The position numbers and the translations under genes are program-made. Under the pieces are notes generated by a model. It worked only from the letters and a program-made list of their open reading frames with translations. It searched no databases and had not been told where the DNA came from. A stretch of 64,000 nucleotides of DNA, taken from the NCBI GenBank assembly GCA_964016885.1, contig OZ024751.1:32984001-33048000 (forward strand), read 5' to 3'. Position 1 is the first letter of the stretch, and each line of letters opens with the position of its first letter. Source of the stretch: Eledone cirrhosa. Its lineage: Eukaryota. This document shows positions 2,642 to 61,622 of this stretch, piece by piece.

Positions 2642-2691
2642 AGAGGGGTAGATTAGGAGTATAAAGAGCATAACAAAAATAAATGGATTCA

Positions 2692-2878
2692 TAATTGTTT
2701 CTACTTTTGGCACAAGGCCTGCAATTATCCCAGTGCATTACTGGTACTTTATTTTATCGACCCCGTAAGGATGAAAGGCAAAGTTAACCTCGGCGGGATT
2801 TGAACTCAGATCATACAGGGAGGTAACTATGCTTCAAAGCATGGTGTCCGACCCTCTACCGATACTGCCAATCCACCG
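2692..2878 (-). mobile_element. SINE, full length
   Basis: Reverse complement of the consensus. Confidence 0.9.
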
Positions 2879-2885
2879 ACCCATG

Positions 2886-3110
2886 ATAATAATATCTTCT
2901 AATATTAGCAGAAGGCCAGTGATTTGGAGTGTGTAGGGTGGGGAGACTATTATAAAGACCCCATTACTTAACTGGTACTTTATTTTATAGACTCTGAAAG
3001 GATGAAAGGGAAAGTTGTCTGAGGCGGGATTTGAAATCAGAACGCTGAAGATCGCTACTAAATCTAATGACTTTCATCCGACCTGCTAACATGTTAGCCA
3101 CGCCACCACT
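2886..3110 (-). mobile_element. Older, long-variant SINE
   Basis: Diverged actggtactttattttatagac...gatgaaaggg...gcgggatttgaa. Confidence 0.7.
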
Positions 3111-7030: not shown

Positions 7031-7975
7031 TAAACATAAGCTTATGGAATTTCTATCAACGAGAATATTCATTACTGCACGGATTGAAAAGGTGACAAAT
7101 AGCCAATCAAATTAATGAATGGACCACATTGACACGTGGTTTATTTTCATAGTCCGTCGAACCCCTCTTTTCTTCTGTCCATCTTAGATTTTGTATTACG
7201 TCGCACCATGACTTCGTATTCAGTTCACGATCGTAAGGTTGTGATTTCTATTCCCGGCAACGCGCTGTGTTCTTCAGCAAGACACTTCATTTCTCATTGC
7301 TCCTGTCCACTTTCTATAGAAATAAAACTGAAATAAGTATTAGTGTCGACAGAATAAACAAAACACTTGAAGTCGATGCCCCAGCTTGAACAGAGTTCAA
7401 TTATTGAAACCATAAAAGAATAAATGAATATTTTGTTGTGAAATTTAAAAAACTAAATTAATTTTGTCTGGTTGATTATAATCCTGTGTCTTGTATGGGA
7501 GAACCGTTATTTGTCCTCTCAATAAACACCCAACACGTGTGGTGTCATGAAACTTTAATTTTACATGCTATTGCAAGTAGCTGGATTTACTGTCAGTCTC
7601 TACAGTTGTTGACAGTCGCTAAATTTTCCTCAGAAAAAAATAAAATAATATTTGGACAGCAAGTATAACAAAATACATTTCTTTCTTAATTCGAAGAAGA
7701 TTATCTCGTTTCTCAGATGATTACCAACGATACCTTAGTGGATAATAATGACACAATCTCCTTAGTTACAGCTTTTTATTTCAGAGAGTATTAGAAACCT
7801 TGAAACTGATGGTTTGATGAATAAATGAAAGGTTTTGTACTAATAGTAAGTTGGGGGAATAAGGACATTAACTCTAGGATATTTCTATATTTGGTAGGTA
7901 TGGAATAAAGCATCTCCATGGTCCTAACAAGTCCTCTCACACGGGAGAGATTGGTGTCTGGAAGGTGAAAAGGAA

Positions 7976-8430
7976 AACGTCTCCATGGTAAAAAGTCTAC
8001 TTGGTAAAAAGTCTCCATGGTAAAAGGTATCCATGGTAAAAAGTCTCCATGGTAAAAAGTCTCTATGGTAAAAGGTCTCCGTAGTAAAAGGTCTCCATGG
8101 TAAAAGTCTCCATGGTAAAAGGTCTCCATGGTAAAAAGTCTCCATGGTAAAAAGTGTCCATGGTAAAAAGTCTCTATGGTAAAAGGTCTCCGTAGTAAAA
8201 GGTTTCCATGGTAAAAAGTCTCTATGGTAAAAGGTCTCCGTAGTAAAAGGTCTCCGTAGTAAAAAGTCTCTATGGTAAAAGGTCTCCGTGGTAAAAGGTC
8301 TCCATGGTAAAAAGTCTCCATGGTAAAAAGTCTCCCTGGTAAAAGTCTCCAAGGTAAAAAGTTTCAATGGTAAAACGTCTCCATGGTAAAAAGTCTCCAT
8401 GGTAAAATGTCTCCATTGGAAAAAGTCTCC
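7976..8430. repeat. Minisatellite, 15-16-bp unit ctccatggtaaaa(a/g)gt, about 28 units
   Basis: Direct reading; explains ORFs 7791-8321 and 7924-8502. Confidence 0.95.
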
Positions 8431-8938
8431 AAGCCCTTCGAAACAAGAGAGATTGATGCGTGGTATGGATAGAGTAAGAGGCACGTCTCGAGGCCTTAAC
8501 AACTAAGATTCTCTCTCAAATCAATCATAGAACACAGTCTTAAAAAAACAAAATGATGTTAAAATATGGTTCTAGATACACTAGACAAGATAGTCATATT
8601 TTGAACTCTTTAAATTATAAGTCTTACCAATTTAAGCTAAGGTTGTGTAAATTATAACAAAGATAGTGATCATGTTTTTTACAATGATTCTCAATATTCT
8701 CAATATTTGACAATCAATTATACCGAGTCAATTGAAGTCAAATATATTTTGTATTGATTATACATGTAAATCGTGTTACATTATAGTAACACTAATATTT
8801 TAGTCGCTAACTGGTAATATCATAATATACTGGCGGACGATACAGATTTACTTTTTTCTATGGTAACATTCTCTCATTAAGTGTGTGTAGAATGTTCATT
8901 ATGGAAGTGAATATGATCACTTATGTCATTACAGTTAG

Positions 8939-9041
<103 letters not shown>

Positions 9042-9080
9042 TTCAAAATATTAATAAATATAGACATTCATGTAATCAAA

Positions 9081-9150
9081 TATATTTTATTATATATATT
9101 TCGGAGGTACTGTGCTGTTTCCTCAGTACGTCCTCATCAGATAAAATATA
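9081..9150 (-). ncRNA. Minimal type-I hammerhead ribozyme
   Basis: Minus strand reads tatattttat-CTGATGA-GGACGTACTG(aggaaacagca)CAGTACCTCC-GAAA-TATATA-TA-ataaaatata. It has a perfect 10-bp stem I, an intact CUGAUGA/GAAA core, a 9/10-bp stem II, a palindromic stem III and an AUA cleavage triplet, and lies about 40 bp from a (CA)n(TA)n tract. Confidence 0.88.
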
Positions 9151-9741
9151 TAAATTGATGTATGACATACCTCAACTGTGCTGATGGTTCAATTCCAGTC
9201 TTGGCAGTGGTTATATATATATATTTAATATATATATATATATGACTTCTCCACCTACCTCCTTCCAGCCTTCCAATTTGTTTATATTGTTTTTGTAAAA
9301 TCGATTTTCTTTCATATATTTATTTGTGTGCATCTGTGTGTATGTGTAAATATATATGTATGCGTGAAAGCTATTGTGTGTAGGAGGTGTATATACAACT
9401 GGCCTAGATGTACTTATGTTCCTGAGTATATTACAAAACCTTTTCCGACAACACTACATCTTGCGACCTTTCTTTGCTGGAATACAGTTGACATGTTGAT
9501 AGGTTTGGAAATATCACAGATAAGAGCGCTGATCACTTATCTTTCCATTCCATAATGAATATGTATTCAGATAATGTCTACTCTTGAAAAGGATATATTA
9601 TTGTCACTTGATTTACTGCATGTATTCTAATTTTGTTTGTAAATTTATTTGTAAATTTGAATTTCTACTAACGCTTTAACGGCCATTGTTTGTGTGTGTT
9701 GATGCGTGTATATTTATATGTAGGTACACATACACACACAT

Positions 9742-15047: not shown

Positions 15048-16218
15048 GGTCAAAGGTTTCAACGTGTATAGAAAAGTTATGTTACATAAATAATAAAGAA
15101 AACCTAGAAAATGTATCTCGCTATTTCTATCATTTAAGGAAAGATCAACAAAGTCGATAATTACTCCAACAATATTATAGGTATTTATTTTCCTGTCAGA
15201 ACATAAACAGATGATTATTAATTTTCTGATGACTTGGCCGTGTTGTATCCATGTTTACTTTTAAATATTAGATGATTTCTTATACGAACCGTTTTGATTA
15301 TTTATCATTGGTAAATATTAGCTAAAAATAATTCTGGTTGAGATAAACATTCTTCAAGTGCTACTAAGAAACTCTGATTCTCAAACCTTCTGTAAGACAC
15401 ATTAGCAAGCTTTCGATTCAGGGGCCAATTTCATCGGTTACATAGTTAGCAACGATCTTCTGTGCTGTATTCTGTGCAAAATAGCACAGAAGGGATGATT
15501 ATTTGTTCAAACAACAATATTTCGCAAGGAGCTTGATAAGAGAAACCGACTTAAGTTTCTAAATCTATCTCTCTGACCCATTTGCCAGTGTAAAGTCATT
15601 TTGGAAGGATTCAGTCGGCTGCTTTTCGCATTAACAGATTCTGTGTGAGATGATTACCCATCTTTATTTCTGTTTGGCGGGTTTAGTACTGTAAGATTCA
15701 TTTCTTTCTATTTTAGTTTGTTTATTCATGTTTTATATTCCTTTACGTTCAACGTATTTTCAGTCCTACTTGCTCAACAATAAAAAATAACCCGAAGAAG
15801 TTGTATCAAGGAGAGTTGAATATTTACACATGTCTTCACATTCATACGCAACCTTTTCCTCCCACCACTCACTTCAATTCGTCTCGTATTCTACTTAATG
15901 TTCACCCACTTCCATCTTTCTCTCTTCCAGTGTCTGTCTACCCCGTCTCTCCAGCTCTTTTGCCATATTACGAAAATACTTCACATATAACTTTATAGAC
16001 TGGGATAACTTTAGTGTGTGTGCTTGCGTATGTGTCATATATATCAATGCTATTTCTTTTTCATTCCCTTCTTTTACATGAAGAATTCCCCAAATATCTC
16101 TTTATCAATTAAATATCTCTCTCTGCATTATATATTGTCCTCTTCAACACCTCTCGGCACAGGCACTGCTTTCTCCTTCCAGTAGGTTTCAGGGACATTA
16201 GTTAACAAACAACAGACT

Positions 16219-18014: not shown

Positions 18015-18204
18015 GGCGGTGGATTGGCAGTTTCGGTAGAGGGTCGGACCCCATGCTTTGACGCATAGAGTTACGGTCCTTGCCATTCTGAGTTCAAATC
18101 CGCCGAGGTTAACTTTGTCTTTCATCCTTAAGGGGGCGATAAAATAAACTACCAGTAATACACTGGTCTAATTGCTGGCCTTGTTCCAAAAGTAGAAACA
18201 ATTA
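18015..18204 (+). mobile_element. SINE with 16-bp TSD
   Basis: TSD attatataccgagatg at 17998-18013 and 18201-18216. Confidence 0.92.
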
Positions 18205-18569
18205 TATACCGAGATGGCAGGATTTAATTTTGAAGGAGGTTGCCTGCTTTTTCTAATGACTTCTTTCTTGTCACATTACGGGGCCAAGTATTTGCTCACC
18301 AAGACGGAACTTGACTTCATTCTTACCGTTTAGTCAGAGTAGGAAGAGTAGTTGCTATGATATTTTCAGGGCATCCCAACCTGATGCAAGAAAAGAAGTA
18401 AGGCGCCCCCAACTGGAGATCTGGCTTGAGCACTTGTAACCTTGTTAACTAAGGGTCTGATGATTGTGTGAAAGCAGGTGATACCACCCAAATAGACCAC
18501 AGCTAGTTATGAACACAGAAATAACCAGGTGCCCTAAAGATTCTTCCAGTTTATTGCCCTGTATTTGAT

Positions 18570-19901: not shown

Positions 19902-20522
19902 AGAGGTAGATAAATTGGTATGATTCTAGATAGATAGATAAATTTATAGGCGTGTATGTGTATGTATACGTAATTATGTATTTATGTGTGTATGTGTATG
20001 CGTGTATTATTTCGAATTGTACTTTCCTAGATAAAAGTTTAATTGATGTTAATGGAAATTCAGGTCTTGTGTTAACACGACAAACTGGAATGACAAAAAA
20101 TAGTACAAAGAAAAAATAACAAACAAAAAACAAAATTCCAATAAAATATAACAAAATACTAACAGTAAAAACAAACAAAATGTAATACATTATGATGCAT
20201 TTTACTGCATTTTATGTATCTATCTCCTATTCTCTGTCACTTGGTATCTCTGTATCGTCTGACGGCCTGACTTGTACGTCTGTCAGTATATAAGTTAGGC
20301 TATCTCTCTGTCAATCATGTAATCTTTGTCTTTGTCTCTTGGTATATCTGTCTGTCTCTGTCGTCTGCCGACCTGGCTCACGTTAGTGTTTGTCAATCTA
20401 TCTTTCTTTATATCTCTACGTCTCTCAGTATATCTGCCTATCCGTCTGTCAGTATAACTCTCTGTCTATCTATCTCTCTGACTCTCTCTTTCTCAGTATA
20501 TCTGCCTATCCCTCTGTCATTA

Positions 20523-20704
20523 TGGCAGTATCGGTAGAGAGTCGGACACCATGCTTTGAAGCATAGAGTTACGTCCCTTTATGATCTGAGTTCAAATCCC
20601 GCCGAGGTTAACTTTGCCTTTCATCCTTACGGGGTCGATAAAATAAAAGTACCAGTAATGTACTGGGTAATTGCTGGCCTTGTGCCTAAAATAGAAACAA
20701 TTAT
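20523..20704 (+). mobile_element. SINE
   Basis: Matches consensus. Confidence 0.9.
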
Positions 20705-20892
20705 AACTTTCTAACTGTCTCCCAGTCTCTGTCTGTCTGTCCTTCGTCTGTCTTTTTTTCTATTTGATTCAAGCAGAAAATTCACATTCCTCACACCAAT
20801 AAAGACATATACATAAATACATATCTGTAGATATATACAGGCATATATACTCACATATACACAATACATATTCACAGACAAATATATACTCC

Positions 20893-23877: not shown

Positions 23878-24039
23878 CGTTTATTGTATTCAGCCATCGA
23901 GAGCGAAATTTAAAAAAAAATTATATATATATATATTCATTAGTTAAGCAAAACAAGACCACACATTTCACAAGGAAGACATTATTAAAATAATGTCAAC
24001 ATATTTTAGTTTGATGTAAGGAATGTAGAGAATAATAAT

Positions 24040-24223
24040 AATTGTTTCTACGTTACGCACAAGGCCAGCAATTATCCAGTGCATTACTGGTACTTTATTT
24101 TATCGACCTCGTAAGGATGGAAGGCAAAGTCAACCTCGGCGAGATTTGAACTCAGATCGTAAAGGGACGTAACTATGCTGGAAAGCATGGCGTCTGACCC
24201 TCTACCGATACTGCCAATCCACC
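24040..24223 (-). mobile_element. SINE with 15-bp TSD
   Basis: TSD gtagagaataataat at 24025-24039 and 24224-24238. Confidence 0.92.
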
Positions 24224-24238
24224 GTAGAGAATAATAAT

Positions 24239-24472
24239 TGCAATAATATTTGTGTTTTCATCAGATAAAACAGGAGGACATATCTGATGAAAACACAAAT
24301 ATTATTGCATGATGATATTTGTTTTGGAAATGCGCATAATAAAATACATGGAACTCCTTTAACCATCTTTTGTTCTTATATATTATGTATACTCCAGTCC
24401 CACAAACTGTAGAGTGCTTCTTATCCGATATCTGCATTGCTTTATTGTACTACAATAAAACTCACCTCCTAC

Positions 24473-24474
<2 letters not shown>
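24239..24474 (+). mobile_element. Second family-A copy (truncated fold-back, hammerhead core present, stem I 5' strand mostly lost)
   Basis: 24281-24474 is nearly identical to 30345-30536 and ends at the same base before (TA)n. CTGATGA at 24284-24290, GAAA-TGCGCA-TA at 24327-24338, short inverted arm at 24239-24267. Confidence 0.75.
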
Positions 24475-24534
<60 letters not shown>

Positions 24535-29991: not shown

Positions 29992-30150
<159 letters not shown>

Positions 30151-30176
30151 AGATCAAAAGATGGTTAAAGGAGTTC

Positions 30177-30253
30177 CATGTATTTTATTATGCGCATTTC
30201 AAAAACAAACATCATCATGCAATAATATTTGTGTTTTCATCAGATAAAACAGG
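30177..30253 (-). ncRNA. Minimal type-I hammerhead ribozyme (family A, inverted left arm)
   Basis: Reverse-complement copy of the motif at 30338-30414 (tcatcag at 30237-30243, tttc at 30197-30200); core intact. Confidence 0.82.
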
Positions 30254-30337
30254 AGAACATGATATGAAGGCTAAAAAATAGTGGATAGTGCAGTTTTAAA
30301 TCAACACAAGTGTTTTTTAGCCTTCATATCATGTTCT

Positions 30338-30414
30338 CATGTTTTATCTGATGAAAACACAAATATTATTACATGATGATGTTTGTTTTTGAAATGCGCA
30401 TAATAAAATACATG
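30338..30414 (+). ncRNA. Minimal type-I hammerhead ribozyme (family A, right arm)
   Basis: catgttttat-CTGATGA(30348-30354)-aaacacaaatattatt(acat)gatgatgtttgttttt-GAAA(30391-30394)-TGCGCA-TA-ataaaatacatg. Stem I is ttttat/ataaaa plus catg/catg; stem II is long with G-U pairs; stem III is palindromic; predicted cut after 30402. Confidence 0.85.
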
Positions 30415-30534
30415 GAACTCCTTTAACCATCTTTTGATCTTATATTATGTATACTCCAGTCCTACAAACTGTAGAGTGCTTCTTATCCGATATCTGCATT
30501 GCTTTATTGTACTACAATAAAACTCACCTCCTAC

Positions 30535-30614
<80 letters not shown>

Positions 30615-31183: not shown

Positions 31184-31232
<49 letters not shown>

Positions 31233-31237
<5 letters not shown>

Positions 31238-31431
31238 AACGAGTAGGACCCCGACGGCTGAGCTCAAGCCGTTTCGACGGCTAATTCTGGACTAGAATTG
31301 AGTCCAGAATTAGCCGTCGAAACGGCTTGAGCTCAGCCGTCGGTGTCCTACTCGTTCCTATTACCCACTCTACTACCCTAAGTATTGAATACGTTATGGT
31401 CCACCTGGTTCCTTACCACATTTCCTTCGTT
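31233..31431 (+). mobile_element. Family-B palindromic insertion in (TA)n carrying the 3' half of a hammerhead-like motif
   Basis: Arms 31233-31293 and 31301-31361 (one mismatch) around a 7-nt loop. The right arm has GAAA-CGGCT(tgagctc)AGCCG-TC; a unique tail runs to ...catttccttcgtt before (TA)n. Confidence 0.7.
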
Positions 31432-31472
31432 ATATATATATATATGTATATATATGCATGTATATATATATG

Positions 31473-34271: not shown

Positions 34272-35105
34272 CTATCTATCTCATCTAAGGCGGGTAAAAT
34301 TCCCGAGATCCATGGACGAGTTCTCTCCAGCGGTCTCTGTCCCTCATTATCGCTGCCATGTCCTGCATCTCCAACAGACCAGTGTCTGTCCTTAGGGCAT
34401 CAACATACGTTAACCTTGGTCTTCCTCTTCTAGTGTGTTTATGTAGGGGCTCCCAAAGGAGTACTGAGTGCAATGTCAACTCTGGATGTCGGTGAGCATG
34501 TCCAGCTAACCTCAGTCTCCTCTGTGTTACTTTTGAGCTGACTTTTGTGATGCTACCATACAGCTCTGAGTTTTTCATCCTCAGTGTATACTGATTAATG
34601 TTCAGAGCCATCCTCAGCATTCTCGTGTAGCACCCATCCACCATCTGAGTAAGTTTCTTGGTCAGTGTCCAAGTCTCAGACCCATACAGCAGCACATACT
34701 CCACTACAGCAATGAAGAGGCGGATTTTCAGGTCTCTACGAAGGTCCGACTTCCACACCGATCTCAAGCTGTGGCACGCCGCCCAGGCCTTGCTCTTCCT
34801 CTCAACCACATCATCTTCCGTATTCCCAATCTTTGCTCCCAAATACAGGAAGTCCTCAACCAATTCCAGTCGCTTCCCGCCTACATTAGTGATCCCCTCT
34901 GGCTTCTCAACATTCTCTACCATATATTTTGTTTTAGTCTCATTCATTCTCAGCCCCACACTCATCGACACAGTCTCAACCTCCCGCATCAAATCCTCTG
35001 CCTCCTTCACTGTATTTGTCACCAAAACTATGTCGTCGGCAAATTCAGCATCCGATACCTTTTTCGCCCTAACTCTCCTGCTCTGAGCCGGTGCTACAGT
35101 AAAGC
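34272..35105 (-). mobile_element. 5'-truncated RTE-type non-LTR retrotransposon with 13-bp TSD
   Basis: Uninterrupted frame encoding FADDIVL, KTKYM, FLYLG, VLLYGSETW, RRLRLAGH and RGRPRLTY. The stop at 34285-34287 is followed almost at once by a short (GATA)n tail. TSD cagagattgatat at 34259-34271 and 35106-35118. Confidence 0.93.
34285..35105 (-). pseudogene. C-terminal part of a LINE reverse transcriptase (no true start codon; ORF-track start lies in flanking DNA)
   Basis: The 283-aa ORF carries the RT catalytic motif FADD and RTE-typical C-terminal motifs. Its first ~10 residues lie in the TSD and flank. Confidence 0.88.
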
Positions 35106-35473
35106 CAGAGATTGATATATAAATAGCAAATAACACTTCTATATCTTAAGAACTTACGTCACTAAATGTAACTGAAGTTGTTTGAAGTGTATTATCTCTG
35201 TTTACATACAAGTCTGGAAAATTTAGTCAGGACAAGTTTTCTGTGTGATATTTCAATGTAACAAGAGAGACAGGCTTGAGGAAAATGTAAAACAGTTTAG
35301 AATATTGGTCGGTATAGGAAAGAACTGATCAATGAAATGTTAGGGAATGGAAATAATGATGGGTGAATCATTGATACGAGGCTGTATTCCCTCCATCTGC
35401 TAGAAATAACAGCTAAATAGCATTTAAATCATCACATATTACCGTCTTAAAAAGAAACGGAAATATATACTAA

Positions 35474-35665
35474 ATAATTGTTTCTACTTTTTGCACAAGG
35501 CCAGCAATTACCCAGTACATTACTGGTACTTTATTTTATCGACCCCGTAAGGATGAAAGGCAAAGTTAACCTCGGCAGGATTTGAACTCAGAATGGCAAG
35601 GGCTGTAACTCTATGCAGCAAAGCATGGCGTCCGACCCTCTACTGATACTGCTAATCTACCACCC
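35474..35665 (-). mobile_element. SINE with TSD
   Basis: tata(t/c)actaaataat at 35464-35478 and 35668-35682. Confidence 0.9.
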
Positions 35666-36538: not shown

Positions 36539-37644
36539 TGGAAAATTTACAGAATGAATATTTCGTTATAAATCCACAATTTGTAGGGTTAAATATTTAA
36601 ATGTCTATAGAATTGTAGATAGAGTGATATTTGTATAAGAGTAGTAAATGAGGAATTGATAGCTATAACTGTAGAAGATACTACTTCTTGTTATCAATAT
36701 ACATACCCAAATATAGACATATATACATAGAGACGTAGATCGATATATATATATAGAGAGAAACACATTTTATGTATATATGTTCGGCACTTTGAAACAT
36801 CAAAATTCGCTTAATTTACATTTTGATATTTATTCATAGATTAGACTTTGAAAATTTTATAGTAAAACGTCATTTTTAATTAATATTCTGATTCATTTGA
36901 AGATGTCTTGGAATATAATTAAAATAATCATAAAAACTAATTTAGAGATATTCCTGTCTGATATAAAACTTTGAAATGATCTTTAATCAATTAGAAGCTT
37001 TGGAATTACTAAGTAATTAACAAACATTACTAAATAATTTCATTTTACTGGACTAAATACAGTGAAATCAGAATAAGCTATATTGCGTTTTCAATTCTCT
37101 ATAGAAGAATTTTGTTGAAATTCTCACCATTAATCTGATCATTATCTTATTAAATAAAATCATCCAATATTGCAGAGAAAATTAGATTTTCATATTCGAT
37201 TCTATTTATAGGTTAATATCAAATAGAGATATGAAGTTGAAATACTATAATGCAACACAAAATATATACCTGGTTGTATGAAATATATAGTAACAATAAT
37301 TTCATTTTCACCTGATTTTTCTACCTATTATAACCTTATTTCAAACTACTGAAATATCTAACACTATCTATCACTCATAGTTAGATCTAAATTTCCAGTG
37401 GCCCTGTGGTTGTTGGCACATCCCTGCGCACAGCCGGCTTACTAAGAAATATTTGTTTCATGTGTTATAATGATGGGGACGCTCGTCCTGTAATAACATT
37501 ATTCATCCGGTGATGGGAGGGGGAATTTGAACTAACGTCTCAGAATATATCACAAATCCTCCCTGTAAATCTCCCACCACTCTCGACTGGCCCTTTATTT
37601 ATCGTACCCTGATAGGATGAAAGGCATTATTTAACTCGGCGGAC

Positions 37645-37855
37645 TGGCAGTATCGGTAATGGGTCAGACGTCATGCTTTGCACCATAGAGTTACGACCCT
37701 TTATGATCTGAGTACAAATCCCGCCGAGGTTAACTTTGTCTTTCATCCTTACGGGGTCGATAAAATAAAGTACCAGTCACGCACTGGGGTCGATTTAATC
37801 GACTTTCCCCTCCCCCATAAATGCTGTCCTCGTGCCTATATAAGAAACCATTATT
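37645..37855 (+). mobile_element. SINE, long variant, head-to-head with an older minus-strand fragment (37586-37643)
   Basis: Retains the extra gggtcgatttaatcgactttcccctccccc segment that is absent from the short variant. Confidence 0.88.
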
Positions 37856-39173
37856 AAACTCGGTGGTTTTAAACAGAGAGCAGTAACTAATTAAGACAAA
37901 GTATTTAATACGACGGCTTAACAACTGTTAATTCACAGCATATTTCCTCTTACAAGCATACATAAAAAATATATATTTTAACCTTTGGTCTTATATTATA
38001 AATAAACTCTATAATATGCGTTGAAACATTCCTTACTCATTCGTCGAAAACAAATTAATACGCACATACATACATAGGCATACACACTCATACACACACA
38101 GACTCACTTACATATATGCATACATATATATATATGTATATGTGTGTCTGTCTGTGTCTGTGTAATTATATATAAATACATATATACATACATACGTATA
38201 CACATTCATACACACACAGTCTCGTATATACAAATACATATAAATATATATACATACATATAAACAAATATATGTTTGTGTGTGTGTGTGTCCTGTGGCA
38301 GCATATTTATACCAATGACACCATATATGTACTCACGCAGAAACAAAAGAGACACATAACCCAATTATATTTCTCAAGTATAGTTGTATTTTCTGTATTT
38401 TTACAACCCAACATACAAAACGGATCCTATCATCCAACGTCACTCATTCTTAATCGCTTTGTCACGCTAGGTATATCTCTAACGAACTCACCCTTTGTTT
38501 AACAACTTCATCACCACACCTTATGTTATACATATTTACAGAATCTAATAGAGACTACTCATCCCTACAACAAAATTATGTGACAGACTGTGTCAGTCTG
38601 AAGCAACATCGCTTAGAATTAATTTTTATCCTTCTTATATTACACCCACTTGCTATTACAAAAAGACGCATCCTTTTGAACATCATCTATTTATACACCC
38701 AACTGATTAACGACAATTTAAAAACCATCTGCCGCATCTAATAACACCAGCCCATTAGAAACTAATAAACTGCTGTATTATCATTGTTCTAATAGTTTTC
38801 CTTATTGTTAATATTCCCACGAGTATAATTCTGCTAAAGTAACTACTCATGAAGAAAACAACATATTTCAGGTAATGCTGAAGATAAGCTATTATCTTGC
38901 ATATAGTTTTACAAAGATTCCTATAAAAGTAAAGAGAAAAAAAAACGCCAGTTGTAACTTACATATAACATACTGAATAACTTGTCTATCCTGTCTGTTC
39001 TTATTTAAAAACATATGAAATATTGTATGAATACAAGAGAGTTGGTGGAGGGGATGGTTGTGGGGTCCTACATGAAAAGGTATGGCCGTGTGGTTAAGCG
39101 ATTTTGTTAGTAATCACATGATACTGAGTTCCATTCTACTCATTCTGCAACACCTTTTATTATTATTATATGT

Positions 39174-39350
39174 TGATGCATAGAGTTACGGCCCTTGCCA
39201 TTCTGAGTTCAAATCCCGCCGAGGTTAACTTTGCCTTTCATCCTTACGGGGTCGATAAAATAAAGTACCAGTAAAGGACTAGGGTCGATCTAATCGACTT
39301 ACCCCTCCCACAAACTGATAGCCTTATGCCTAAAGTAGAAATCATTATTA
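39174..39350 (+). mobile_element. 5'-truncated long-variant SINE
   Basis: B-box, core and long segment present. Confidence 0.88.
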
Positions 39351-39356
39351 TCATAT

Positions 39357-39538
39357 GGCAGTATCGGTAGAGGGTCGGACGCCATGCTTTCCATTATAGT
39401 TACGTCCCTTTACGATCTGAGTTCAAATCCCGCCGAGGTTGACTTTGCCTTTCATCCTTACGGGGGTCGATAAAATAAAGTACCAGTAATGCACTGGGTA
39501 ATTGATGGCCTTGTGTCTAAAGTAGAAACAATTATTAT
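39357..39538 (+). mobile_element. SINE inserted at the tail of the previous copy
   Basis: TSD attattatcatat at 39344-39356 and 39531-39543. Confidence 0.92.
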
Positions 39539-39982
39539 CATATATGCGTGTGTGTGTGTCTGTATATATATATATATATATATATACAATACATTAATAG
39601 AGAAAGCCTTAAGCTATACTCTGACTAGCTTCCATCTCACTCAACAAACATTAGGATATACCTTAGTATAATCCCAATTTTACGTTTGGGGTGCTAACTA
39701 TATGTATTTTGCGGAAGGCCAGTAGTATTATTTTATATGAGACATAATTAAAATATATCTCCTTTTCCAAACAATTGTTTCATTATAAGTTTTCTACAAG
39801 TTGAGAGAATGTTTCCGGGTTATGTAGAAGCCTTCTCAACATTCCGTAGGAATATATGCAGGTGGGCACTTATAAATCATCAGTGGATGCCCGTCAAACA
39901 TCGATATAAAAAAAAACTTCTCTTACCGATGTTTTAATCCCATGTCAGTGATTGTCTCTTTCCGTATCAGAATGACCACCAA

Positions 39983-47620: not shown

Positions 47621-47706
<86 letters not shown>

Positions 47707-47711
<5 letters not shown>

Positions 47712-47900
47712 AACAAGTAAGACCCCGACGGCTGAGCTCAAGCCGTTTCGACGGCTAATTCAGTACAGAATTAGCCGTCGAAACGGCTTGAGCTCAGCCG
47801 TCGGGGTCTTACTTGTTCCTATTACCCACTCTACTACCCTAAGTATTGAGTACTTTGGTGCGTTATGGTCCACCTGGTTCCTTACCACATTTCCTTCGTT
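47707..47900 (+). mobile_element. Second family-B palindromic insertion in (TA)n
   Basis: Perfect 55-bp arms 47707-47761 and 47768-47822 around a 6-nt loop. Same start point, tail and 3' end as 31233-31431. Confidence 0.72.
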
Positions 47901-47918
47901 ATATATATATATATATAT

Positions 47919-51115: not shown

Positions 51116-51212
<97 letters not shown>

Positions 51213-51213
51213 A

Positions 51214-51324
51214 ATAATTGTTTCTACTTTAGGCACAAGGCCAGCAAATACCCAGTACATTACTGGTACGTTATTTATAGACCCCGTAATGATGAAAGGC
51301 AAAGTTAACCTCGGCGGGATTTGA
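51214..51324 (-). mobile_element. 5'-truncated SINE
   Basis: Consensus from the B-box to the tail. Confidence 0.88.
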
Positions 51325-53842: not shown

Positions 53843-54032
53843 GGGGAATTGGCAGTATCGGTAGAGAGTCGGACGCCATGCTTTCTAGCATAGTTACGTC
53901 CCTTTACAGTCTGAGTTCAAATCCCGCCGAAGTTAACTTTGCCTTTCATCCTTCCGGGGTCGATAAAATAAAGTACCAGTAATGTACTGAGTATTTGCTG
54001 GCCTTGTGCCTAAAGTAGAAACAATTATTATT
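53843..54032 (+). mobile_element. SINE, first unit of doublet
   Basis: attattattagtata at 53826-53840 and 54024-54038. Confidence 0.92.
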
Positions 54033-54038
54033 AGTATA

Positions 54039-54221
54039 CGGTAGAGGGTCGGACGTCATGCTTTGACGCATAGAGTTACGGCCCTTTCCATTCTGAGTTC
54101 AAATCCCGCCGAGGTTAACTTTGCCTTTCATCCTTACGGAGTCGATAAAATAAAGTACCAGTAATGTACTGGTCAATTGCTGGCCTTGTGCCAAAAGTAG
54201 AAACAATTATTATTATTATTA
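54039..54221 (+). mobile_element. SINE, second unit of doublet
   Basis: Starts at cggtagagggtcgg and ends in (ATT)n. Confidence 0.9.
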
Positions 54222-55418
54222 CTGTTGTTGTTAATGCCGACCTCAAAACATCACTGTTATTTTAGTTGTTGCTGCTGTTATTGTTGCTGTTATTGTTGTT
54301 GTTGTTGCTGTTATTGCTGTTATTGTTGCTGTTGTTGTTGTTGTTACTGCTGTTGTTGTTGTTTTATGTCTTTCGTCTCTGTGTTTGCCTTTTTACTATT
54401 GTTTGTCTCAGCTATGTGTACCGTTGTAATTTTATAATTCTCCGTTAAGTTGAATAGTTAGCTCCGCTGCAACATATTTACACGTGTGCACATAGACACA
54501 AAATAAATAAAGCAAATAAAGTTTTTAAAAATAATCATAATTATTATTATTAATATTATTATTATTGTTATGTCTAAATTAGAAATCATCATTATCATTA
54601 AAATCATCATCATCATCATTATCATTAAAATAACTACTACAACAAAAATAGCAATAATATTAAATTCTGTGCCTCAACTTAATGTGGTTTATTTCAGGTG
54701 TAGTCAGTCATAGACTTTCAGCAGGAATTAATACCAGAAGATTCCGACTTGATATGGCGACAATTCTGTTTCAACAGAAACGATTCTTTGTTTTTACATC
54801 AAGAAAGCAATCTAAATTGAATATGAAAATAACTTTAATTCAAAATTTTGACATCCCCGCCAAACACGAGTTTTAATTAAGATTTTGAATTAGATATTGC
54901 TGACTTTTCGATTATTATAATTTCATTTCATTCTATTCTTAATGATAATTTATATACTTTCCATTAGATTCAAAGAAATAGAAAAAGGAAATATTTGCTA
55001 TTAAAAAACATAGAAAGTTTTAAAATATACGAAGCAAATTCTTAAAATTTGATATAATTAGTGATATTTTCATGAATTTATAGAAAAGCCCCATAATTTA
55101 GGAGACAAAGAATAGGTGATGTTGAGACATTCATGCATTTTCTAAGAGCATTGGTGGTGAGTAAATGTTTTTTATTTACATTGGTGATAAGTTTCTAGCA
55201 AAATGAGAATACATTTTCAGCTTGGGTGCCTGATGCCCTTCTCACATACAGAAGACCCCAGACAAGATCCCGTAAAATCTATCCCAGGAAGACAAATAGC
55301 AACTAAGTTTGTATCCTTCAAAGATGTTTCCATAAGAAGCAAAAACTGCTTGTCAAAAAGGTCATGAAAGGTTAGTCAGAGATCTGATGACACCGCGAAG
55401 GTAGAAAGGACGCAAGGA

Positions 55419-55778: not shown

Positions 55779-55896
55779 CCACCTTGTTAAAAGCCAACGC
55801 CGTGCAATGATACATCTCACTACGGTATGGACTGCAAAGTTGACAATTGTTTTTCTTCGTGGGAAATATTGTTGGGTGGAAAAAGAGTTATTACTA

Positions 55897-56008
55897 AGTT
55901 CGAATCCCGCCGAGGTTAACTTTGTCTTTCATCCTTACAGGGTCGATAAAATAAAGTACCAGTAATGCACTGGGGTAATTGCTGGCCTTGTGCCAAAAAG
56001 TAGAAACA
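55897..56008 (+). mobile_element. 5'-truncated SINE
   Basis: B-box gttcgaatcc through gtagaaaca. Confidence 0.88.
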
Positions 56009-56191
56009 GTTTTAAAATATCCGATAACTTTGGATATCATCTGTTTGTCATCTCTGTCTCTTTTCGACATCTCTTCTCCCCCTTCACATCATCATCATCC
56101 TCATCATCAGCATCATCCTCATATCCTCCTCCTCCTTCTCCTCCTCCTCCTCCTCATCATCATATCCTCCTCCTCCTCCTCCTCCTCCTCC

Positions 56192-59548: not shown

Positions 59549-60442
59549 CCAGCACCACCACCACCAGCACCACCACCACCACCACCACCAACACCACCAT
59601 CAGCACCACCAGTACCACCACCAGCACCAGCAACACCACCACCATCACCACTACTAGCAACACCACCACCACTGCCACCACCAGTACCAGCACCACAACT
59701 GCCACCACCAGCACCAGCACCATCACCACCGCCACCACCACCACCACCATTTATTTAAGACCCCATTATGTTTTCAGTGTTTGTTTTCATTTATTCGTTA
59801 ATGTCAGCAACGAAAATGTTTTAGTGGTTTCCCCTTCAACCCCCACCCTACACCACTCCATCTATTCACCCACACAGCTCCTTTGCCTCACTCCTCCCTA
59901 CACGCCCCCTTAACCTCACAGCCCCCCACATCACACCCGTATTTTCCTATTCCCACTCAACTTTAACAAATATCTATCATTACTTAGTAAAGGTGACTAG
60001 TTAAACTCGTGTAACAAATATCTAACTATATGGACTAGATCAACCGTTTCCTCCTCATACCGACCCCCATTGAGGGCTCTTCTTCTGTCGACGTACTGCA
60101 GTTTTCTGCACACCCCCACTCTCACCCCCACCCCGGAAAAATCGGGAAGAGTGCATCCTACTTGAAGTAACTCCGTGAGGTGATGTGGGTGATGCAGTAG
60201 GTATTGCTTCCACCTTTCTGTCTGCGGGATGCAACTAAGTCGAACCATATACAACTGTGGTCTTGTGTCTCCCCGCTTTCCATTAGGTTTCCTTTAAATA
60301 TTTTCCTGGTTCTTTTGTTATTCAATCTTTGTGTCTTGAATGAAACGCAGATGGATAGTAAACGTCTTTCGTTTATTCCTAATAAATTCTACAATGTACT
60401 TTGTACATTTAGTTTGATATTTTACTTTCATTAATTATTATT

Positions 60443-60637
60443 GTAGATTGGCAGTAACGGTAGAAGGTCGGATGCCATGATTTGCAGCATAGAGTTACGG
60501 CTCTTTACAGTCTGAGTTCAATTCCTGCCGAGGTCAACTTTGCCTTTCATCTTTACGGGGTCGATAAAATAAAGTACCAGTAATGCACGGAGTAATTGCT
60601 GGCCTTGTGCCAAATGTAGAAGCAATTAATTATTATT
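60443..60637 (+). mobile_element. SINE with TSD
   Basis: attaattattatt at 60430-60442 and 60625-60637. Confidence 0.9.
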
Positions 60638-61622
60638 TGTTTTAGTTTCTTTATATTTAAGGACTCTGTGCCAGAATAAATATCAAACTACCGTATACAG
60701 TATTCCTTCTTCGTATCTCTAAAAAATTATCAGTTGGGCGTTGGAGCACAACCAGAGATTCTTGTCTTTATAAATCTTGGGATGTAGGGAATATGACAGA
60801 AGCCAAAGCCGGTAATCTTCCTTGGTTATTTCAAAATTAATGATGTTACGGTTTGGAACCTGAAAACCTTTCCAGGGTAAAGCAGTCTTTTACTTATTTT
60901 CAAACCATTCCTGTTTCGAAACTAATGTTTCTAGAATTTAAACAAATCCGGGAGGGGAGCAGCACAAGACAGTCCTATAAAAAAGCGGTTGATCACAATC
61001 TTCACTGTCTTGAAACCATAACGATGCTAGAATCTTCTGGGAACAATGTAGCTTTAGATATTCTCTAGAGAGGACATTCTTAGCTGTCTAGTAACCATTA
61101 CTTTACTAAAATTCTGCCTTATCAGGGTGAGGGTAGGCATTCCGAAATATTCTCTAAGGAGCAGAGTTGTAGCTGCATCAAACCTATAATAATGCTAGAA
61201 TCCCATTTAGGAGGGGGCAATCCTACATATTTTCCATAGACCACATCCCTTATACAGTCGAAAATATAATGAGGGTATTAGTATTTTGATGATGCCTGTC
61301 GTATTTAGTAATATTCTTGGAATTTTTAACCGAATACTTATTCCAACATTGGGGTAGATATTTCTCATTCAATTGTCCATTCCTGGAATATTCTTGTATA
61401 TATTAGTTATATGTGTGGTCATTGTTCCCGTTAATGTAGTCGGGAGGTGAGTTATACTATGTGATGGAGATCAGGAACTTTAAACATAACTTCTCTCGTC
61501 TTTATTTCCGTCATATATTCATCAGACGGGACATTAGCATAGTTATGATCAGTCTCCATCGAGTATAAAGTGAAGTCCTTAACATTATGAGAATCAGTTC
61601 AAATCAGTTCGATTAGTGTATA

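Follow-up and report, generated by a model that had tools for sequence, protein, structure and literature searches.

Positions 9081-9150 of a 64,000-nt stretch of the Eledone cirrhosa genome (NCBI GenBank assembly GCA_964016885.1, contig OZ024751.1, positions 32,984,001-33,048,000; hereafter the window) resemble a hammerhead ribozyme on the minus strand. This raises the questions of whether the motif is genuine, to what kind of element it belongs and whether a lone copy cleaves. The window is eukaryotic, AT-rich and rich in microsatellites. Read on the minus strand, the sequence contains a complete type I hammerhead in which all core nucleotides are present: C3 U4 G5 A6 N7 G8 A9, G12 A13 A14, the A15.1-U16.1 pair and H17. 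Its parts are as follows.

9141-9151, minus strand: 5' strand of stem I, 11 nt (sequence, fold and descriptor).
9134-9140, minus strand: core C3-U4-G5-A6-U7-G8-A9 (sequence); only N7 (9136) varies at 5% or more in X1, a public run described below.
9124-9133, minus strand: 5' strand of stem II (fold), with G10.1 at 9133 and an unpaired C10.4 at 9130.
9113-9123, minus strand: loop 2, 11 nt, in which 4 of the 11 positions vary at 5% or more among the copies in X1.
9103-9112, minus strand: 3' strand of stem II (fold), with C11.1 at 9103 and a mismatched C11.4 at 9106.
9100-9102, minus strand: core G12-A13-A14 (sequence).
9092-9099, minus strand: palindromic helix III, 8 nt, from A15.1 (9099) to U16.1 (9092); predicted 8-bp intermolecular helix in the two-copy fold.
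9090-9091, minus strand: predicted cleavage site after A17 (9091), 9091|9090, from hammerhead numbering.
9080-9090, minus strand: 3' strand of stem I, 11 nt (sequence, fold and descriptor).

Stem I comprises 10 bp within 9081-9150 and 11 bp with the additional pair 9151·9080. Stem II has ten positions, in which 3 bp closed by G10.1-C11.1 are followed by a C·C mismatch (9130·9106) and 6 bp. An initial annotation of this DNA had described a 10-bp stem I, a palindromic stem III and a cut between 9091 and 9090, all of which agree with the anatomy given here, the cut being a predicted site; it had also called the motif essentially perfect with a GC-closed stem II, which holds for the closing pair but not for the helix that the mismatch interrupts. 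The 70 nt fold with -13.6 kcal/mol (z -2.69; equally good folds in 4 of 200 shuffles). A 9-nt direct repeat on the minus strand, at 9177-9169 upstream of the motif and at 9117-9109 across loop 2 and the 3' strand of stem II, may be due to chance.

We searched the window with a descriptor consisting of the core, a stem II base of at least 3 bp, UH and a stem I of at least 6 bp. It matched three times, at 9081-9150 and at two copies of another hammerhead family in the window (family A). The same descriptor found one match in 300 block-wise dinucleotide-shuffled windows, and none with a stem I of at least 10 bp. The hammerhead at 9081-9150 is a genuine motif, as the initial annotation had held. 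The covariance-model score that it proposed as a check gave no support: Rfam yielded no match at the gathering threshold in the whole window, and at E<=10 the 20 weak matches in 8900-9400 included no hammerhead family. Rfam hammerhead models fit the variants found in Penelope-like elements (PLEs) poorly. A loose pattern detected 29 loci in metagenome contigs; by eye none of them had stem II together with a palindromic helix III, and they were taken as chance matches. A pattern specific to the 9081-9150 family had no matches in viral contigs and none in prokaryotic genomes.

The motif lies in a short stump bordered by microsatellites.

9212-9243, unstranded: imperfect (TA)n tract that borders the stump at its 5' end (sequence).
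9038-9211, minus strand: stump of a dispersed high-copy repeat that is truncated at its 5' end and likely represents a PLE 3' end (pseudo-LTR), delimited by run depth and variant tally.
8943-9037, unstranded: compound microsatellite, (TA)n then (TG)n, on the 3' side of the stump, the likely insertion target (sequence and tandem repeats).

The stump extends 71 nt upstream of C3 and 53 nt downstream of the predicted cut. It is inserted in a microsatellite, with (TA)n on both sides and no discernible target-site duplication. To analyse its abundance, four of the eight listed public runs (X1, X4, X5, X6) were aligned to 9040-9700 at 80% likeness; X6 comes from a different study, X4 carries a second organism label, and the window may itself stem from X1. 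Matching sequences numbered 1,519 contigs in X1, 2,236 reads in X6, 74 contigs in X5 and 11 contigs in X4, one of the latter being identical over 66 nt. Depth in X1 was 71,008-377,434 over 9040-9200 versus 16-40 at 9247-9315, with a drop near 9210. The resulting ratio of stump to flank, about 1,500- to 9,600-fold, is a rough figure and not a copy number; its baseline is thin, comprising three bins, and 9316-9700 has a depth of zero. The segment 9040-9200 is a dispersed high-copy repeat with a hammerhead near its 3' end. The description of the motif as stand-alone in the initial annotation is thus correct for the window, where blastn revealed no second copy, but not for the genome. At the 3' end, 186 and 95 reads of X6 continue past the stump with non-microsatellite letters, and other copies are therefore longer at this end.

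Family A occurs in the window as two inverted pairs.

24239-24281 and 24284-24475: inverted 5'-truncated pair of family A inside (TA)n; the copy near 24.3 kb is degenerate.
30146-30243 (minus strand) and 30280-30536 (plus strand): inverted 5'-truncated pair of family A inside (TA)n.

Copies of family A end at either of two distances beyond the cut, 43 nt or 134-136 nt. Its stem II starts with A10.1-U11.1 and lacks G10.1-C11.1, and its palindromic helix III is stronger and of a sequence unlike that at 9081-9150. Helices II and III thus differ between the families while pairing is kept in both, as the initial annotation had noted when it assigned the motif to a family other than A. An apparent similarity of the flanks was rejected as not significant, since 1709 and 1456 of 2000 shuffles scored equally well. 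Both intact copies of family A have C·U at position 4 of stem II, and a C·pyrimidine mismatch at this position is common to the two families. This shared mismatch is a new detail.

Sequence variation within the 9081-9150 family was tallied in X1 only, using all 25 changes listed for this run (23 positions) and leaving out 26 rows of X4-X6. The 11 invariant core positions showed no change (P=0.18), and the sole change in the core was U7 to C. Among six changes in stems, five keep pairing (9095, 9103, 9104, 9142, 9149) and one breaks a pair (9084), giving p=0.043 with a 10-bp stem I and p=0.145 when the eleventh pair is counted. These conservation statistics for core and stems are weak. In X1, both 9130 and 9106, which form the C·C mismatch, stay below 5% variation, and loose ends in X1, X4 and X5 carry other stem II variants that retain C at position 4. 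Since family A has C·U there as well, we regard the mismatch as a family trait and reject decay of the 9081-9150 copy as its origin.

Fold prediction separated the monomer from the dimer. In the 70-nt monomer, stem I (as an open helix) and stem II form with pair probabilities of 0.6-0.99, whereas helix III does not exceed 0.001 at any temperature (18, 25 and 37 °C) or context tried and is predicted in the two-copy fold only. There, the minimum free energy structure at both 37 and 25 °C is a double hammerhead, in which the copies exchange stem I strands and join through an intermolecular helix III of 8 bp. The predicted gain from dimerisation is -12.1 kcal/mol for family A versus -6.2 kcal/mol for the 9081-9150 family, energies that leave out tertiary contacts and Mg2+. 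Co-folding of family A with 9081-9150 predicted no double hammerhead. Activity of the lone copy is doubtful by these predictions, because its helix III probability is close to zero while two copies co-fold.

A Pfam search of 91 non-low-complexity ORFs of at least 55 aa in the window detected a reverse transcriptase (RT) fragment at 34288-35145 and two sub-threshold matches, and would have passed over short exons. One of the latter, a Folliculin-like match at 15898-16101, was rejected as a host gene since it had no PDB match at E<=1. No PLE ORF adjoins the stump, and the sole RT of the window belongs to an unrelated LINE fragment 25 kb away.

The type I hammerhead in this high-copy stump of 170 bases most likely marks the 3' end of a truncated Penelope-like retrotransposon, and we hold the mechanism set out below to be part of this reading. 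That the motif is part of a high-copy stump, likely of a retroelement, had been overlooked by the initial annotation. Penelope-like features described by Craig et al. (PMC8557442, as far as its available sections go) include inverted 5'-truncated copies and an optional 3' tail. According to File S1 of that study, 26 of 27 Hydra-clade PLEs have (TA)n as their target, as do octopus Naiad and Hydra families; the ribozymes of the Hydra clade in File S2 lie near the 3' end and have a helix III built from a palindrome of about 4 bp, closed by a loop of 0-3 nt. The consulted part of PMC4209133 describes PLE hammerheads with a long helix II and a palindromic helix III, mostly as single copies from truncated PLEs, with opposite-strand ribozyme pairs 100-700 bp apart. 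In O. vulgaris, Penelope-like elements are reportedly expanded and partly active (PMC13282606, in the portion at hand). We read the stump as a PLE end because its (TA)n flanks, the copies running on at the 3' side and the inverted pairs of family A match these traits. Inverted truncated copies and an optional tail are clear in family A; in the 9081-9150 family they may be reflected in four thinly supported opposite-strand joints and in the run-on reads. Five joints were listed for this family, and each of the four comes from one contig or from one or two read starts; one opposite-strand joint may reflect the inverted repeat of stem I itself. Both PLE membership and clade rest on architecture, since no RT or GIY-YIG ORF is linked to the stump, and lacking an ORF we assign no clade because Naiad also targets (TA)n.

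Under the PLE reading, the GIY-YIG endonuclease of the parent element would have cut the (TA)n microsatellite, and reverse transcription would have ended some 70 nt upstream of the ribozyme, so that a single ribozyme remained with neither an ORF nor a partner. For the intact element, the prediction is that the ribozymes of two pseudo-LTRs, carried on a single RNA, swap their stem I strands while their palindromes pair as an 8-bp helix III. The double hammerhead so formed, possibly aided by the protein of the element, would excise the element RNA from its precursor.

Comparison with known systems showed both likeness and difference. The variant from Drosophila virilis Penelope and the rotifer, shrimp and mosquito motifs, as given in the examined part of PMC4209133, share with 9081-9150 the type I topology, a long helix II with G10.1-C11.1 and a palindromic helix III; they too are predicted to depend on dimers and mostly occur as dispersed single copies. 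Helix II of the D. virilis motif is likewise irregular in its middle, through a bulge in place of the 1x1 C·C mismatch of 9081-9150. In contrast to these motifs, stem I measures 11 bp instead of 2-5 bp, no unpaired nucleotide lies between A9 and 10.1, and no ORF is linked. Hydra-clade elements in the available files of PMC8557442, including Hydra-1_Obim of Octopus bimaculoides, share the (TA)n target, the ribozyme near the 3' end and the palindromic helix III; with 3-8 bp in stem II and mostly 3-7 bp in stem I (Files S1 and S2), both stems are shorter than at 9081-9150. Identity with Hydra-1_Obim was rejected, as its ribozyme sequence is different and six short motifs had no match in the accessible supplement of PMC8557442. 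Poseidon PAc of Anolis carolinensis (PMC11167929, in the sections consulted) is also a PLE pLTR ribozyme with an intact core and a model for the conservation of a motif with weak helix III; cleavage was assayed for PAc and depends on the protein of its element, and the cut at 9081-9150 is a predicted site.

Metazoan non-LTR retrozymes (PMC7229834; bioRxiv 10.64898/2026.07.22.740005, both as far as available) are like 9081-9150 of type I, without ORF and present in many copies, and those of amphibians are dimer-dependent (PMC7229834). The stump could be a lone unit of such a retrozyme of the non-autonomous kind, derived from a short element of tandem repeats whose circular RNA is mobilised in trans. 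High copy number, the type I hammerhead, the missing ORF and low GC fit such an origin, and dispersed monomers have been described in the accessible text of both sources. The two readings are also close, because the preprint derives retrozymes from PLE pLTRs. Retrozymes, however, are head-to-tail repeats with canonical contacts between loop 1 and loop 2 in the descriptions at hand, and neither feature was seen at 9081-9150. There is no tandem array at the locus, and none of the five listed joints is head-to-tail, although a unit longer than the aligned stump would escape this count and arrays elsewhere are possible. The layout differs from the canonical 6-bp stem I with 4-bp stem II. Insertion into (TA)n is characteristic of PLEs, as are inverted pairs such as those of family A. 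We therefore consider a retrozyme monomer unlikely and retain the truncated PLE.

As a PLE hammerhead, the 9081-9150 family adds to the known set of Penelope-type motifs, and its kind is already known. No description of the family was found in the literature or in the available supplement of PMC8557442, and Table S1 of PMC4209133 lists no cephalopod; the comparison covered part of the 56-motif alignment of that study. The core spacer is 31-36 nt in this family and family A versus 7-17 nt allowed by one published core search. It is conceivable, with a low probability, that the stem II of 3 bp, conserved C·pyrimidine mismatch and long helix defines a distinct class of PLE hammerheads, of which same-strand solo pairs, or solo copies assisted by the protein, could cut host pre-mRNAs. 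Thousands of solo stumps would then carry the same self-complementary helix III, and a very long intron could come to contain two of them on the same strand. For the switching-on of such weak ribozymes, the mismatch that both families have at position 4 of stem II offers a small, testable lead. Greater importance would follow only if solo copies, by mutual pairing or with the protein of the element, do cut host transcripts.

The initial annotation had named the motif the best candidate for an active ribozyme. A lone copy that cleaves in cis and cuts a host pre-mRNA is very unlikely, even though the core and the G10.1-C11.1 pair, absent from family A, are intact and stems I and II form well in the isolated 70 nt prediction. 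Apart from the missing monomer helix III, folding within 700 nt of genomic context lowers predicted pair probabilities to 0.0-0.29 for stem I and to 0.08-0.90 for the base of stem II, values that vary with the permitted span. One further feature is predicted to compete for stem II.

9256-9262, minus strand: 7-nt flank complementary to the stem II 3' strand 9109-9103, a predicted competitor in one context (pair probability 0.78-0.88 in 8990-9300).

Published motifs behave alike as far as the cited sections go: a single Schistosoma min-HHR did not cleave, with dimers cleaving weakly (Cervera and De la Pena, PMC4209133), and cleavage by the Anolis PAc ribozyme required the protein of its element (PMC11167929). 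Family A is not predicted to serve as a partner and itself gains more from dimerisation, and no host exon was recognised among the 91 ORFs. The lone copy probably cleaves little or not at all, as predicted from the failure of helix III to form alone and from the lack of a compatible same-strand partner in the window; the rank of best candidate is accordingly not upheld.

A chance match in AT-rich, microsatellite-rich DNA, for which stems I and III made of A/U alone and the lack of a hammerhead match in Rfam might speak, is excluded for practical purposes by the shuffled windows and by the large repeat family that carries the same core.

The surroundings of the stump contain further repeats. 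The fragment at 34288-35145 (minus strand) is an open LINE reverse transcriptase fragment of 286 aa (Pfam RVT_1, DUF6451), which we take to be RTE-like; its best named match among 120 listed is an Octopus vulgaris protein with 72% identity over 60% of the length, and unnamed matches among these 120 reach 74%. A SINE-like repeat of about 185 bp, presumably an octopus SINE, occurs more than 10 times and in both orientations, in places as a tandem dimer (1550-1950, 2690-3044, 18015-18208, 20521-20707, 24031-24224, 35456-35664, 37626-37790, 39173-39541, 51206-51324, 53845-54225, 55894-56020 and 60433-60655); two short motifs of it had no match in the literature. A 270-bp repeat is present in two copies at 31188-31449 and 47662-47918, which are 89% alike and adjoin (TA)n. 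At 7974-8431, 600 nt from the ribozyme, lies a 16-bp minisatellite with 28.8 copies and 85% matches.
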